Source: a virus (lineage: Duplodnaviria; Heunggongvirae; Uroviricota; Caudoviricetes). From it: DNA of 64,000 bases. This document shows, piece by piece, positions 11,197 through 19,690 of the stretch; the first letter of the stretch is position 1; each line of letters begins with the position of its first letter. The stretch is from the IMG/VR virus record IMGVR_UViG_3300031555_002904; one strand, written 5' to 3'. A model generated the notes under the pieces. That model was given only the letters and a program-made list of their open reading frames with translations, had not been told where the DNA came from and searched no databases. The position numbers and the translations under genes are program-made.

Positions 11197-11787
11197 ATGA
11201 ATTATATGAAAGTTCTTATTGTCGTAGATATGCAGAAGGATTTCGTTGATGGTTCCCTGGGCACCAAGGAGGCGCAGGCTATCGTTCCGCTGGTCGCAGA
11301 GACCATTGAGCAGATGGCAGCTCCCGATACTGTGGTTATCTTCACCAAGGATACTCATCCCGAAAATTACATGGATACCCTGGAGGGTAAAAATCTGCCG
11401 GTTCGTCATTGCATCAAGGGCACTGCCGGTCATTCCATTGTTGATGAAGTGTTCAAGGCTTACATCAATGTTATCGACACCTATGCCGACGCTTATGAGG
11501 TCTACCCCATGACCGACATTAACCCTATCAAGGTTGAAAAGCCTACTTTTGGCTCTGTCGAACTGCAGAACATTTTGTTCGATATCAATGAGCGTCTGGG
11601 TGTTGAAGAGGTTACTCTGATGGGTCTGTGTACCGGAATCTGTGTTATGTCCAATGCCATTCTGGCTAAGGCTACGCTGCCCGAGGTTCCTGTGAATGTG
11701 ATTGCTGATTGCTGCGCCTGTGTTACCCCCGAGAGCCACAAGACTGCTCTGGAGGCGATGAAGCTGTGCCAGGTCAACATCATCTAA
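11197..11787 (+). CDS. pncA: nicotinamidase (isochorismatase family)
   Basis: LIVVDMQKDF...DTHPENY...HCIKGTAGH...catalytic Cys in LMGLCTGICV. Confidence 0.75.
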   Translation: MNYMKVLIVVDMQKDFVDGSLGTKEAQAIVPLVAETIEQMAAPDTVVIFTKDTHPENYMDTLEGKNLPVRHCIKGTAGHSIVDEVFKAYINVIDTYADAYEVYPMTDINPIKVEKPTFGSVELQNILFDINERLGVEEVTLMGLCTGICVMSNAILAKATLPEVPVNVIADCCACVTPESHKTALEAMKLCQVNII

Positions 11788-11810
11788 ACTCTTTGCGAGA
11801 AAGCTGCTTA

Positions 11811-12005
11811 ATGTCGCGTGAACAGCTTTCAGAATTGAAAGAAGAAGATTTGCCATATTGTCCTTCAGCTTTTCTATACTGCGAGGGCAATTTCAAAAGA
11901 TATAAAGCATATATCAAATTACGAGCTTTCCGAGTATTCGGTTGGAATGGAAGTGCCGATTTAGAACTCGGAATGGGAGAAACATGGAGGAAAATGTATG
12001 ATTAA
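11811..12005 (+). CDS. hypothetical small protein
   Basis: Internal ATG of ORF 11709-12005. Confidence 0.25.
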   Translation: MSREQLSELKEEDLPYCPSAFLYCEGNFKRYKAYIKLRAFRVFGWNGSADLELGMGETWRKMYD

Positions 12006-12825
12006 AGTAGGTAATGTCGAAATTAAGCAGGGTCAGTTCCCCGATGGCACTCTGTTGATGAAGTTTGACCCCAATGGGGATGAATTTGACACTCGCGGTA
12101 ATATTCTGGTCGAGTGGTATTATGAAAATGATGCAGAGCTTTTCTCTTTGATTTGCGTAAAGCGCCATCTGGACCGCGTCTATTCTTACAGCGATGTTGT
12201 TCTGGAAATGCCTTACATCCCCCATGCCCGCATGGACCGAGTGAAGTCTGATGAAGATGTTTTCACTCTCAAGTATTTCTGCGAAGTTATCAACTCTCTG
12301 AATTTCAAGGTTGTTCATGTGCGTGACGCACATAGCAACGTAAGCCTGGCCCTTCTGAACAATGTAGAAGAAATGCCCATTACTAATTATGTTCTGGATG
12401 CAATTTTTGAGGCTCAGGCTGATGTACTCTTCTTCCCCGATGAAGGTGCTATGAAGCGTTATTCTGGTGGGTTTGATATTCCTTACGCTTTTGGAATGAA
12501 AAAGCGAGATTGGAAGACCGGTCAGATTCAGGGCCTGGATATTATCAACGCCGAAGCAGTTAAGGATAAGAATGTTCTTATCGTTGACGATATCTGTTCT
12601 CGTGGTGGTACTTTCTACCATTCTGCTAAAGCTCTTAAGGCTGCTGGCGCCAAGAGCGTAAGTCTGTATGTCACCCATTGCGAAAAGACTATTATTTTGG
12701 GTGAAATGGCCAGCACTGATGGTCTTGTTGACCATGTCTATACCACTAAGTCCATTTTCCCCGAAGAGTTATTCAACGAAGGTTATGACCCTTACTGGAA
12801 GGAATGGATTACTGTATATCATTAA
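11998..12825 (+). CDS. phosphoribosyltransferase-domain protein (Prs-like; candidate ADPR-pyrophosphokinase or PRPP synthase)
   Basis: C-terminal VLIVDDICSRGGTF...AKALKAAGAKSV is a PRPP-binding loop resembling Prs VLVDDMIDTGGT. Confidence 0.6.
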   Translation: MIKVGNVEIKQGQFPDGTLLMKFDPNGDEFDTRGNILVEWYYENDAELFSLICVKRHLDRVYSYSDVVLEMPYIPHARMDRVKSDEDVFTLKYFCEVINSLNFKVVHVRDAHSNVSLALLNNVEEMPITNYVLDAIFEAQADVLFFPDEGAMKRYSGGFDIPYAFGMKKRDWKTGQIQGLDIINAEAVKDKNVLIVDDICSRGGTFYHSAKALKAAGAKSVSLYVTHCEKTIILGEMASTDGLVDHVYTTKSIFPEELFNEGYDPYWKEWITVYH

Positions 12826-12843
12826 AGAAAGGAGTAGACTCCA

Positions 12844-13362
12844 ATGAATAAGTATGAGTCTATTAAGGCAGATATGACAACTGCCTTGAAAAACGGCGAT
12901 AAGCTGAGACGTTTGACTCTGGCTGATATGGTCGCCACAATCGACAAAGCTGCTACCTCTGGTAAAAAGAGAGTAGAAATCACAGATGCTTTTGTCGATG
13001 AAGTGATGTTGAAGTATAAGAAGACTGTCCAAGAGATGGTCGATACCTGTCCCGATGGGGCAACAGACCCCAAGAGAGATGCAGAATTGAAGGCTCGTAA
13101 GGCTGAATATCTGATGAAGCTCTCTATCGCTTTGGAGTATGCTCCTAAGGTTATCGACGACAAGGATGAAATTGTCAAGATGATTAACTACTGGGGAGTT
13201 TGTAACGCAGTTTCTATCTGCTCTGGTAATAAGGGTGTCATTATGAAGAATGTGATGCCTTTCTTGAAGAAAGAGGGCTGCGATATGAAGGTTGCCCAAG
13301 AGGCACTGAAAGAAGCTATGGCTGCAGGCGATGCTTGCGTCAAGGCACAAATGGGAGAGTAA
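12844..13362 (+). CDS. GatB/YqeY-domain protein
   Basis: Helical repeat pattern ALKNGDKLRRLTLADMVATIDKA typical of the YqeY family. Confidence 0.45.
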   Translation: MNKYESIKADMTTALKNGDKLRRLTLADMVATIDKAATSGKKRVEITDAFVDEVMLKYKKTVQEMVDTCPDGATDPKRDAELKARKAEYLMKLSIALEYAPKVIDDKDEIVKMINYWGVCNAVSICSGNKGVIMKNVMPFLKKEGCDMKVAQEALKEAMAAGDACVKAQMGE

Positions 13363-13365
13363 GAT

Positions 13366-18197: not shown

Positions 18198-18725
18198 ATG
18201 ATTTTAGTTAATCTTTTTGGTTCTCCTGGTACTGGTAAGTCTACTGGTGCCGCATATATCTTCAGCCAGCTCAAAATGCGTGGTATTAACGCAGAGCTGG
18301 TAACTGAGTTCGCTAAGGATAAGGTATGGGAAGAGAGTAAAGCTGTTTTCAATAATCAGGCTTACATCTTTGGTAAGCAATATTTCCGCATCAGCCGTTG
18401 TGCTGATAAAGTTGATGTTGTTATTACTGACTCTCCCTTACTTCTATCTTTAGTTTATAACCATGACCCCGTTTTGGGCGAAGATTTTAATAATGTCGTC
18501 CGCAAAGTAATGAACAGCTACAATTGTAAAAACTATTTCCTAGTTCGCACCAAAGAATATAATCCAGTAGGACGATTCCAGACTGAAGAAGAATCTGATA
18601 AGATTGCTGATGAAATTTTGGAATTGCTCAATAAGGAGCAACTCCCTTATACAATTTCCACTGGCGATATAGTTGGTTATGATGCTATTGTTGACGACAT
18701 TCTCCATATCTTAGAGGAAGCTTAA
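18198..18725 (+). CDS. P-loop kinase (candidate nucleoside or ribosylnicotinamide kinase)
   Basis: Walker A GSPGTGKST; DSP Walker B-like; 175 aa; ATG overlaps the upstream stop. Confidence 0.5.
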   Translation: MILVNLFGSPGTGKSTGAAYIFSQLKMRGINAELVTEFAKDKVWEESKAVFNNQAYIFGKQYFRISRCADKVDVVITDSPLLLSLVYNHDPVLGEDFNNVVRKVMNSYNCKNYFLVRTKEYNPVGRFQTEEESDKIADEILELLNKEQLPYTISTGDIVGYDAIVDDILHILEEA

Positions 18726-18735
18726 TGCTTCCTCT
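18713..18735 (+). terminator. rho-independent terminator
   Basis: agaggaagc/ttaat/gcttcctct then TTT. Confidence 0.55.
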
Positions 18736-18764
18736 TTGATTTTTATTAAAAAATATGTTATAAT
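18736..18764 (+). promoter_or_regulatory. conserved phage promoter P7
   Basis: TTGATT 18736-18741, 17 nt spacer, TGTTATAAT ending 18764. Confidence 0.7.
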
Positions 18765-18797
18765 ATATATATAAAGTTAAGAAAGGAATTGATATAA

Positions 18798-19115
18798 ATG
18801 ACTGTGAATATTGATGCTCCTATCATTGTAGCTTTTACAGATAAAATTCGAGACCGTGTCGTAGCAGACCCTTATATTTATTTCACAGATGAATTTACCG
18901 GTGAGGGTTTAGTTGCTGTATATGGTTGTCCCAATATTAAAGATTTTTTTGCTTTAATAGAGCATTTAATTAAATACCCCGATGGTATGTGGTATTGGGT
19001 GTTGCATGAGGGAAAATGTATCTGTTCTGGGGCTTGTGACCCTGGTGATATGGAAATTTTTGAAGACTATTTCGGTATCACTCAAGAAGAAGCAAAAGAT
19101 TTAGTGATTAAGTGA
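18798..19115 (+). CDS. hypothetical protein
   Basis: RBS AAGAAAGGAA; 105 aa. Confidence 0.5.
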   Translation: MTVNIDAPIIVAFTDKIRDRVVADPYIYFTDEFTGEGLVAVYGCPNIKDFFALIEHLIKYPDGMWYWVLHEGKCICSGACDPGDMEIFEDYFGITQEEAKDLVIK

Positions 19116-19126
19116 GGAGAATTATT

Positions 19127-19690
19127 ATGACAGGTGTTATTTTATTTAGAGCACAGCCTTTTCATAGAGGACATTTAAATATGGTTCAAAAGGCTTATGA
19201 AGATTGCGCCGCAAATAATTGCGACCTTTATATCTTCGTTGGCTCTGCCGATAAGAGCGGCACTGTCCGCAATCCTCTACCCATTGATTTTCGTATCATG
19301 CTTTTGGAAGGCTCTCTTCACGAACATTTTACAACAGAACAAATGAAATATATTCATATTTTTCCTTTAGCTGATATGACTGATGAAGCTGACAATAGCC
19401 ACGCATGGGGCCGATATCTTTATATCAAGATGTTTAGTAAAACCAAAGATTCTGATATGACTATCTATTACAGTGATGACCCCCGTATTATGCTCGGTTG
19501 GTTTGCCCAAGATGAAAGATGGTTACTTCGATTTAAATTTCTTGATAGATTCGAAGGTATTAGTGCAACATTGGTTCGCCAGGCTTTTCAGATGCCTAAT
19601 AGCGACCCGATGATTGAAAAACTTGTTCCTCGATATGTTTATAATTATCGAGAAGAAATTAGAAACTATTTAAGCGAGGCGAAAGGTTGA
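19127..19690 (+). CDS. nicotinamide/nicotinate mononucleotide adenylyltransferase-like nucleotidyltransferase
   Basis: RBS GAGGAG; GVILFRAQPFHRGHLNMV is the (H/T)xGH cytidylyltransferase-fold motif; adjacent to NAD genes. Confidence 0.65.
   Translation: MTGVILFRAQPFHRGHLNMVQKAYEDCAANNCDLYIFVGSADKSGTVRNPLPIDFRIMLLEGSLHEHFTTEQMKYIHIFPLADMTDEADNSHAWGRYLYIKMFSKTKDSDMTIYYSDDPRIMLGWFAQDERWLLRFKFLDRFEGISATLVRQAFQMPNSDPMIEKLVPRYVYNYREEIRNYLSEAKG

Follow-up and report, generated by a model that had tools for sequence, protein, structure and literature searches.

Gene content of the island

The region from 11197 to 19690 of a 64,000-nucleotide stretch of DNA (the window) from a Caudoviricetes virus, IMG/VR record IMGVR_UViG_3300031555_002904, carries an island of genes for NAD+ and ADP-ribose (ADPR) metabolism. 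Thirteen co-oriented open reading frames (ORFs) were found here on the + strand, separated by short or negative intergenic distances, and nine of them encode NAD+/ADP-ribose enzymes (Table 1). A first-pass annotation made from the sequence had counted eleven consecutive genes, a number that is corrected here; its recognition of a nicotinamidase (PncA), a Prs-like protein, a NAMPT-family protein, NadE, an adenylyltransferase-like protein of nicotinamide mononucleotide (NMN), Sir2, Macro and NADAR was borne out by profile and motif assignments. Judged from its proteins, the island is very probably a module for rebuilding NAD+ of the type described as NAD+ reconstitution pathway 1 (NARP1). With somewhat better than even odds, its pyridine chemistry has been switched from nicotinamide to nicotinate and nicotinic acid adenine dinucleotide (NaAD, deamido-NAD).

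Well over 100 independent contigs, from metagenomes, viruses and genomes, were found to carry the same gene set, and the clustering is therefore not by chance. No DNA match to the island was obtained by megablast against 50,697 phage records. The island had been called unusually complete in the first-pass annotation, which is a fair description, since this lineage adds an NMN adenylyltransferase (NMNAT), Sir2, NADAR, YqeY and a kinase to a conserved five-gene module.

Table 1. Genes and transcription signals of the island, with positions in the window
Feature	Position	Strand	Length	Basis or remark
Terminator-like hairpin	11117-11140			Precedes promoter cassette
Promoter cassette (TTGATT-17-TATAAT, extended -10)	11143-11171	+		Opens transcription unit 1
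PncA-type nicotinamidase	11197-11787	+	196 aa	Pfam Isochorismatase 3.6e-24
Adps-like ADPR pyrophosphokinase (Prs-like), predicted	11998-12825	+	275 aa	phrog_619 8e-76
YqeY/GatB-like protein, accessory	12844-13362	+	172 aa	Pfam YqeY at cut-off (27 bits)
CobB-type sirtuin (Sir2), accessory, predicted NAD+-consuming deacylase	13366-14139	+	257 aa	Pfam SIR2 9e-45
Lipoprotein-like ORF	14136-14537	+	133 aa	Signal peptide and Cys; no Pfam or PHROG match
Terminator hairpin (13 pairs) and promoter cassette	14540-14597	+		Opens transcription unit 2
Small ORF	14626-14874	+	82 aa	No family match
Namat-clade transferase variant (NAMPT-like)	14879-16354	+	491 aa	SPbetaL1 Namat 9W5X/9W5W, E 7e-100
Macro-domain protein, Adpp-like	16354-16860	+	168 aa	phrog_335 'phosphatase' 4e-32
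NH3-dependent NAD+ synthetase NadE	16863-17669	+	268 aa	Pfam NAD_synthase 1e-50
NADAR-domain protein, accessory, ADP-ribose glycohydrolase-like	17682-18197	+	171 aa	Pfam NADAR 1.8e-32
P-loop kinase-like protein, accessory	18198-18725	+	175 aa	Pfam AAA_28 1e-10
Terminator hairpin and promoter cassette	18713-18764	+		Opens transcription unit 3
Small ORF	18798-19115	+	105 aa	No family match
NadM/archaeal-type NMN/NaMN adenylyltransferase (NMNAT), accessory	19112-19690	+	192 aa	No Nudix domain

The Adps-like protein, the transferase and their partners

The Prs-like protein can be assigned to the clade of Adps, the ADPR pyrophosphokinase, and not to ribose-phosphate diphosphokinase (Prs), on the basis of its profile scores, residues and place in the tree. 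It scores under every NCBIfam Prs cut-off and has 275 aa, as compared to 315 aa in E. coli Prs. When E. coli and Sulfolobus Prs serve as outgroups, a neighbour-joining tree puts it within the clade that the verified Adps enzymes of ICP1 and FADO delimit. It is 35% identical with FADO Adps, as compared to 23% for E. coli Prs. The counterparts of F18, R87, H121, D161, K185, D212 and D213 of ICP1 Adps, which in the ICP1 structures serve ADPR binding and catalysis (PMC13586617), were found to be kept in the alignment, and the Adps catalytic residues are invariant across 105 distinct orthologs. Moreover, the Adps of SPbetaL1 forms no phosphoribosyl pyrophosphate (PRPP). The first-pass annotation had proposed either a PRPP synthase or an ADPR pyrophosphokinase; the tree and the residues uphold the second half of this proposal and not the first.

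In case of the NAMPT-like protein, the alternatives had been NadV and a Namat-like enzyme, and it is the Namat assignment that stands by structure match and tree, while the Nampt assignment is dropped. Its PDB match to SPbetaL1 Namat (Table 1) compares with about 1e-48 for human NAMPT, and in a neighbour-joining tree rooted on the NARP2-type, PRPP-using Nampt it falls within the Namat radiation. This places it, by sequence, in the Namat clade and not with PRPP-type Nampt. In SPbetaL1 numbering, the residues D13, Y15, F189, R192, R306, D308, G360, D361, T398, R399 and D400 are kept. The stacking aromatic F392 is also retained, at a position where NARP2-type Nampt has Gly (GGGLLQMVNRD). A lack of catalytic residues in the Prs-like and NAMPT-like proteins had been named in the first-pass annotation as an argument against its reading; the residues are present in both proteins, except the aspartate that binds nicotinamide.

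This aspartate of the nicotinamide pocket, Asp215 in SPbetaL1 and D219 in human NAMPT, is Ser211 in the window transferase. Ala242, just before the catalytic His, is Ser238, and the pocket-lining H187 and H207 are likewise replaced. A D219S mutant of NAMPT is said to accept nicotinic acid. In SPbetaL1 Namat, Asp215 hydrogen-bonds nicotinamide, and the D215A mutation cuts NAD+ formation about 8-fold (PMC12774641). In human NAMPT, Asp219 hydrogen-bonds the amide and defines the nicotinamide specificity, according to Khan et al. as cited in PMC7096376 and PMC9322656. All the 96 loci of the variant clade to which the window transferase belongs have S or A at position 215 and S at position 242. Identity within this clade drops to 35% (window compared to Phage Phass-1). 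Among the best 150 family members from 1.84 billion cluster representatives, about 41-45 belonged to the variant type and 100 to the classical D/A type. The variant is a large and old clade.

These 150 representatives were also screened for proteins in which the transferase is fused to PncA, NadE or Adps; the long ones were only insert-split forms or HNH fusions and thus uninformative. As a separate observation, many phage Namat/Nampt genes were found to carry inserts of 100-400 aa or HNH endonuclease fusions (P0243, P0267, P0269, P0283 and others), and such interrupted genes give tblastn matches in 2-3 pieces in many phage records, which suggests inteins or homing elements.

The best solved relative of PncA is the P. 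horikoshii nicotinamidase 1ILW (2.9e-15), and the M. tuberculosis nicotinamidase is also among its best PDB matches. Its triad D11, K115 and C149 and its metal-site residues D52, H54 and H71 align to both of these enzymes, and the catalytic and metal residues are invariant in 72 distinct orthologs. NadE scores 169.6 bits with TIGR00552 (cut-off 63.65) and matches P. horikoshii NadE in the PDB at 1.5e-32. Its SGGxDS motif, that of N-type ATP pyrophosphatases, does not vary among 69 orthologs. Purifying selection acts on the catalytic residues of PncA, NadE and Adps.

The start of the Macro gene overlaps the stop codon of the transferase gene. The Macro protein has no Pfam match; its PDB matches are BT1257, the DarG macrodomain and Poa1p (6LFU, 6LFQ), i.e. 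the Poa1p/DarG/TARG1-like group. It is 32.7% identical over full length (E 1e-29) to the phosphatase of Vibrio phage K354, which is sited between Adps and Namat, and it gave a PADLOC match to DarG at 2e-15. It looks like an Adpp enzyme, predicted to convert ADPR-1''-phosphate to ADPR, and may also release ADPR from other conjugates. It may instead be a DarG-like DNA de-ADP-ribosylase, a role that sequence alone cannot separate from that of Adpp. In the system termed NARP1-AP, Adpp turns ADPR-1''-phosphate, the product of the aRES defence, into ADPR (Osterman et al. 2026, preprint 10.64898/2026.01.28.702374).

Sir2, NMNAT, NADAR and YqeY vary between lineages: as accessories outside the conserved module, they occur in 10-50% of related loci. 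The frequencies in variant loci are 84% for Macro, 50% for NADAR, 19% for NMNAT, 10% for Sir2 and 10% for YqeY, and NADAR usually adjoins NadE or Macro. The sirtuin scores 253.7 bits with the NCBIfam model of CobB-type deacylases, NF001752 (cut-off 221); a reading as a defence-type SIR2 was rejected, as no PADLOC match was obtained and the CobB-type model was passed. The NMNAT is below the cut-off of TIGR01527 (1.6e-13) and matches archaeal NMNATs in the PDB at 1e-8. With its motifs HxGH (FHRGH) and SxTxxR (SATLVR) it appears genuine, yet it is accessory.

The P-loop kinase is likewise an optional add-on in this phage lineage. Its gene is absent from 82 viral loci and present in locus L146. 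The first-pass annotation had suggested a possible nicotinamide riboside (NR) kinase, which is rejected as unsupported, the fold being that of a generic (deoxy)nucleoside monophosphate kinase. The protein has no PDB sequence match, and its homologs are labelled only AAA_28, presumably the Pfam family of the NadR kinase. In Foldseek, its AlphaFold2 (AF2) model, with a predicted local distance difference test score (pLDDT) of 87, best matched thymidylate kinases (template modelling score, TM, about 0.65) and also adenylate and adenosine phosphosulfate (APS) kinases; no NadR NR kinase was among the top 50 matches.

Covariation, proposed pathway and its alternatives

The genes accompanying the pocket residues were compared in 80 IMG/VR loci seeded by the window protein and 52 IMG/VR loci seeded by SPbetaL1 Namat. 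The two closest GenBank phage records (MT835544 and Phage Phass-1) and eight cultured-phage loci (ICP1, FADO, the crAss-like DAC15, a Staphylococcus Kayvirus, a Felix-like coliphage, a mycobacteriophage, Vibrio K354 and an Aeromonas NARP2 phage) were added, and the loci were scanned with hidden Markov models made from the island proteins. Loci with [S/A]215 and S242 have both PncA and NadE in 86 of 96 cases, and the other 10, which are without one of them, are mostly cut by contig ends. Where at least 8 kb is available on each side, PncA and NadE are both present in 70/70. PncA or NadE was found in none of the 45 loci with [D/E]215 and A242, which include the eight cultured-phage loci, and Adps is adjacent in 42 of them.

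A scan of GTDB gave 19 further loci, all of the S/S type, and most of these have a compact operon, PncA(-1.4 kb)-Adps(-0.8 kb)-transferase-NadE(+1.5 kb). The gene order varies in the clade, with PncA upstream or downstream and Adps on either side. Among the 50,697 phage records, homologs of PncA were present in 7 (all from human gut), of NadE in 42, of Adps in 1489 and of Namat/Nampt in 2041.

The Adps and Namat clade memberships and the adjoining Adpp-like Macro make the core of the island NARP1-AP-like. The loss of the nicotinamide aspartate and the constant company of PncA and NadE make it probable that the chemistry is that of nicotinate/deamido-NAD and not the published nicotinamide reaction. 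In the proposed pathway, a host NADase of SIR2, TIR, SEFIR or RES type would split NAD+ to nicotinamide and ADPR or ADPR-1''-phosphate, and the Macro/Adpp-like enzyme would provide free ADPR. Adps would form ADPR pyrophosphate (ADPR-PP) from ADPR and ATP, and PncA would convert nicotinamide to nicotinate. The Namat variant, with Ser211 and Ser238, would then join nicotinate and ADPR-PP to NaAD, which NadE would amidate to NAD+. PncA, Adps, the transferase and NadE would be necessary and sufficient to lead from the NADase products to NAD+, with host enzymes not needed; through Macro, and perhaps NADAR, further sources of ADPR would become usable. The suggestion of the first-pass annotation that the island is a candidate counter-defence by NAD+ reconstitution remains the best reading, given the Adps and Namat grouping and the Adpp-like Macro.

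The joint proposal is that the Ser211/Ser238 transferase catalyzes a previously undescribed reaction, nicotinate + ADPR-PP to NaAD, and with PncA, Adps and NadE forms a self-sufficient 'deamido-NARP1', a pathway by which most NAD+ reconstitution in large phages and prophages of human-gut Clostridia would proceed and which is nearly absent from cultured-phage collections. For this proposal as a whole we estimate a probability of roughly 0.5.

In comparison to NARP1 (Osterman et al. 2024; PMC12774641, PMC13586617), the island similarly has an Adps-clade and a Namat-clade gene on the same strand, with four ORFs between them and in a phage context. Both catalytic cores are intact, and NAD+ is likewise predicted to be rebuilt from the products of immune NADases via ADPR-PP. 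The island differs in having S211 for Asp215, S238 for Ala242, a 10-aa insertion in the clamp, loss of the second aromatic and Met for the clamp-loop Arg. Further, this type is always accompanied by PncA and NadE, neither of which occurs in any of the 45 classical NARP1 loci, and its predicted product is NaAD and not NAD+, so that a fourth, ATP-consuming step would be needed. With NARP1-AP (Adps-Adpp-Namat) it shares a Poa1p-like Macro gene directly beside the transferase; however, the order is Namat variant-Macro and not Adps-Macro-Namat, and the identity to the Vibrio K354 homolog is about 33%.

As in NARP2 (Nampt + Nmnat/Nudix, Vibrio phage KVP40), one phage encodes both a NAMPT-family protein and an NMN adenylyltransferase, but the island transferase is of the Namat clade and not of the KVP40 NadV/PRPP type, and the NMNAT is without Nudix and occurs in 19% of related loci. 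No phage carrying NARP1 and NARP2 together was found by Osterman et al. The close NMNAT and AAA_28 P-loop kinase genes resemble NARP3 (PnuC + NadR; PMC13464706), whereas here the two activities are on separate proteins with no NadR-type fusion, and thymidylate kinases, not NadR, are what the kinase model matches. None of the ORFs examined looked like PnuC, no search aimed at it having been made. Lastly, the island resembles the bacterial Preiss-Handler cycle (PncA, PncB, NadD, NadE) in having PncA as the first step, NadE as the last and NaAD as the penultimate intermediate. Unlike that cycle it has no PncB or NadD, the middle part being predicted to be replaced by Adps and a Namat-type transferase acting on ADPR-PP.

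The systems described so far are NARP1 and NARP2 (Osterman 2024), NARP1-AP (2026 preprint) and NARP3 (PMC13464706). In a literature search of incomplete coverage, NARP1 and NadE were combined in no paper, and one paper had NARP1 and nicotinic acid, in a generic mention only. The text of a 2022 survey of viral NAD+/ADPR systems contains neither 'PncA' or 'nicotinamidase' nor 'NadE' or 'NAD synthetase'. The predicted pyridine substrate, the predicted product and the obligatory partners PncA and NadE would be new, while the pathway logic of NARP1 is already known.

A number of points weigh against a nicotinate-based pathway. The variant clade is monophyletic in the neighbour-joining tree, and the covariation thus reflects essentially one ancient origin with long retention and not repeated convergence. 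Possible exceptions are locus L147, with neither PncA nor Adps in the 8 kb upstream, and L164, without PncA in the available sequence. Three further gut-phage fragments encode PncA, two of them without the module in the fragment and the third with PncA beside the contig end. The preference of NadE for NaAD or nicotinic acid mononucleotide (NaMN) is not readable from its PDB matches, the second-best of which is 3FIU (2.6e-28). From the biological side, sirtuin-type NADases would be freed from product inhibition once nicotinamide is removed, which would seem of no help to the phage, and the deamidated route is costlier, with a phage benefit that is only speculative. It may be speculated that nicotinamide is trapped as anionic nicotinate, or that the route is adapted to hosts whose PncA quickly removes nicotinamide.

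The adenine clamp also weighs on the same side. The clamp helix GSFTYQYNTRD of SPbetaL1 has become GAFCFH-ALFSPDNKFT-VLTRD in the window (16007-16069), which departs from the adenine-clamp signature published for Namat, GSX-phi-X-phi-X-phi-TRD: Ala stands at position 2, 10 aa are inserted and Val replaces Y396, the position-3 aromatic being kept. R40 of the clamp loop is Met. With a clamp remodelled in this way, the use of ADPR-PP rather than PRPP is not secure.

The two human-gut phage fragments that have PncA without the module are L165 (MT835706, 28939-29562) and L166 (MT835572, 19772-20308), whose available sequence shows neither Adps nor Namat nor NadE. Nicotinamidase in phages thus also occurs outside the module, and the association from PncA to the module is partial.

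The remodelled clamp is in keeping with a PRPP-based phage version of Preiss-Handler salvage, as is the ability of SPbetaL1 Namat to use PRPP in vitro. Here PncA would form nicotinate, the Prs-like protein PRPP and the transferase NaMN, with host NadD or the phage NMNAT forming NaAD and NadE completing NAD+. Otherwise, in a Francisella-like manner, NadE would convert NaMN to NMN and the NadM-type NMNAT would finish. The change of Asp to Ser argues for nicotinate and is silent on the ribosyl donor, a NadM-type NMNAT is indeed encoded in the window, and NadE resembles 3FIU, which we take to be the Francisella enzyme that amidates NaMN rather than NaAD. This route is nevertheless unlikely. The Prs-like protein is nested between two verified Adps enzymes and stays under all the Prs cut-offs, and the Adps of SPbetaL1 makes no PRPP. 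NMNAT is found in just 19% of variant loci, the ADPR-producing Macro (84%) and NADAR (50%) would be left with no role, and the stacking F392 is kept, unlike in PRPP-type Nampt.

It is also rather improbable that the island is a classical, nicotinamide-using NARP1-AP accompanied by a separate boost of the host Preiss-Handler route by PncA and NadE, with Ser/Ala only relaxing or tuning the binding of nicotinamide. The Namat catalytic residues other than D215 are intact and SPbetaL1 D215A keeps some activity after its 8-fold loss; moreover, PncA occurs without the module in some gut-phage fragments and NadE alone in cyanophages and jumbo phages. But the boost would leave unexplained why D215 and A242 are replaced in all the PncA/NadE-linked transferases (96 loci, about 41-45 clusters at 50% identity), as compared to 0/45 loci without these partners. 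A phage nicotinamidase would, in addition, compete with a nicotinamide-using Namat for its substrate, and in many loci the four genes are packed into a single tight operon.

The lowest probability is given to an auxiliary metabolic module that raises or recycles NAD+ for the phage's own LigA, CobB-type Sir2 and ADP-ribosylation turnover whatever the host immunity: the phage does encode a NAD-dependent LigA and, within the island, the sirtuin, whose products (nicotinamide and O-acyl-ADPR) could be recycled via Macro, PncA, Adps, the transferase and NadE, and NARP1 homologs occur also in bacteria, but Sir2 is present in just 10% of related loci, published NARP1 is ADPR-dependent and idle unless a NADase is active, an Adpp-like Macro makes sense mainly against RES-type cleavage, and such a role concerns purpose and not chemistry, so that it can coexist with the nicotinate-based pathway.

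Transcription signals, genome surroundings and hosts

Three nearly identical promoter-like cassettes are present in the island at 11143, 14569 and 18736, each 3' of a terminator-like hairpin, and with hairpin and cassette at three sites the island would be divided into three transcription units. The cassettes are identified only as sigma-70-like consensus matches. The same promoter-like cassette of about 45 bp, TTGATTTTTATAAAAAAATATGTTATAATATATAT, has 8 near-identical copies in the first 21 kb (1034, 3620, 4843, 8525, 11143, 14569, 18736 and 20625), most of which sit 3' of a GC-rich terminator-like hairpin, and weaker versions are found at 29888, 41494, 43906 and 51209. The repetition suggests a single co-regulated, probably early, gene block which includes the NAD island. 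In the 210-bp gap between PncA and Adps, a candidate small ORF of about 64 aa (ATG at 11812; 11812-12005) was noticed, and the relative L144 has a called 95-aa gene in the same place. No tRNA genes were found in the window, and no match to Rfam families, including NAD+ riboswitches, was found in 10800-20800. The G+C content is 42-47% in positions 1-24000 (36% at 18-20 kb) and 35-40% in 24001-64000.

Directly upstream of the island, at 8588-11104, lies an 838-aa ORF with Major Vault Protein (MVP) domains (Vault_3, MVP_shoulder) followed by a long coiled-coil. A similar gene is present in L003-L006, L009 and L147, and the close relative L143 has an HD_4 protein in its place. On a 145-kb contig, a close relative carries this island too, lacking both the P-loop kinase gene and the MVP-like gene upstream. 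The island is flanked by RNA-repair-like genes (6427-7845, 21093-21638 and 21635-22222), namely an RNA ligase (PHA02142 OB fold and RNA_ligase), an AAA_33 polynucleotide-kinase-like protein and a metallophosphoesterase. L143 additionally has Thg1, and in FADO and mycobacteriophage Jubie, too, the NARP1 loci have genes for Thg1 or for polynucleotide kinase/RNA ligase close by. Possibly, the genes for NAD+ reconstitution and for tRNA repair occupy a common anti-defence region. Farther downstream, a 502-aa SPFH/Band 7 flotillin-like protein (22851-24359) is conserved in L143 and L144, and a PIN-PhoH fusion protein of 369 aa (25251-26360) is conserved in L143.

The window also encodes an amidase/SH3 lysin, NrdD, gyrase, a DnaE-type polymerase and LigA, which fits a large phage of anaerobic Gram-positive hosts. 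The ligase gene at 36139-38130 is of LigA type and NAD+-dependent, as had been annotated. The GTDB matches are almost all from metagenome-assembled genomes of Clostridia (Lachnospiraceae, Ruminococcus, Roseburia, Agathobacter and Acutalibacteraceae), and the hosts are apparently gut Clostridia. Two isolate scaffolds, Ruminococcus sp. AM36-2AA (L151, 499 kb) and Lachnospiraceae bacterium A4 (L160, 792 kb), carry the module in the form PncA-Adps-transferase-(NADAR/Macro)-NadE. The flanks in L160 are phage-like, with a DNA methylase, TnpB and an AAA_24/Sak4-like protein. These isolate modules are probably prophages, which would offer experimentally tractable hosts.

NAD+ depletion is among the commonest antiviral strategies of bacteria, and phages are known to counter it mainly by NARP1. 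If the proposal holds true, a nicotinate-based NARP1 would add a new enzymatic reaction, and two pocket substitutions together with two recruited housekeeping enzymes would be seen to rewire a counter-defence pathway. The combination of [S/A]215 and S242 with PncA and NadE can be used as an annotation rule that sets this system apart from NARP1, NARP2 and NARP3. The variant is abundant in human-gut metagenomes, where it occurs in hundreds of contigs and makes up at least about 40 clusters of proteins at 50% identity. NAD+ warfare in gut Clostridia may obey metabolic rules unlike those of the E. coli and Bacillus models, and such differences would matter for predicting host range and for engineering gut phages.

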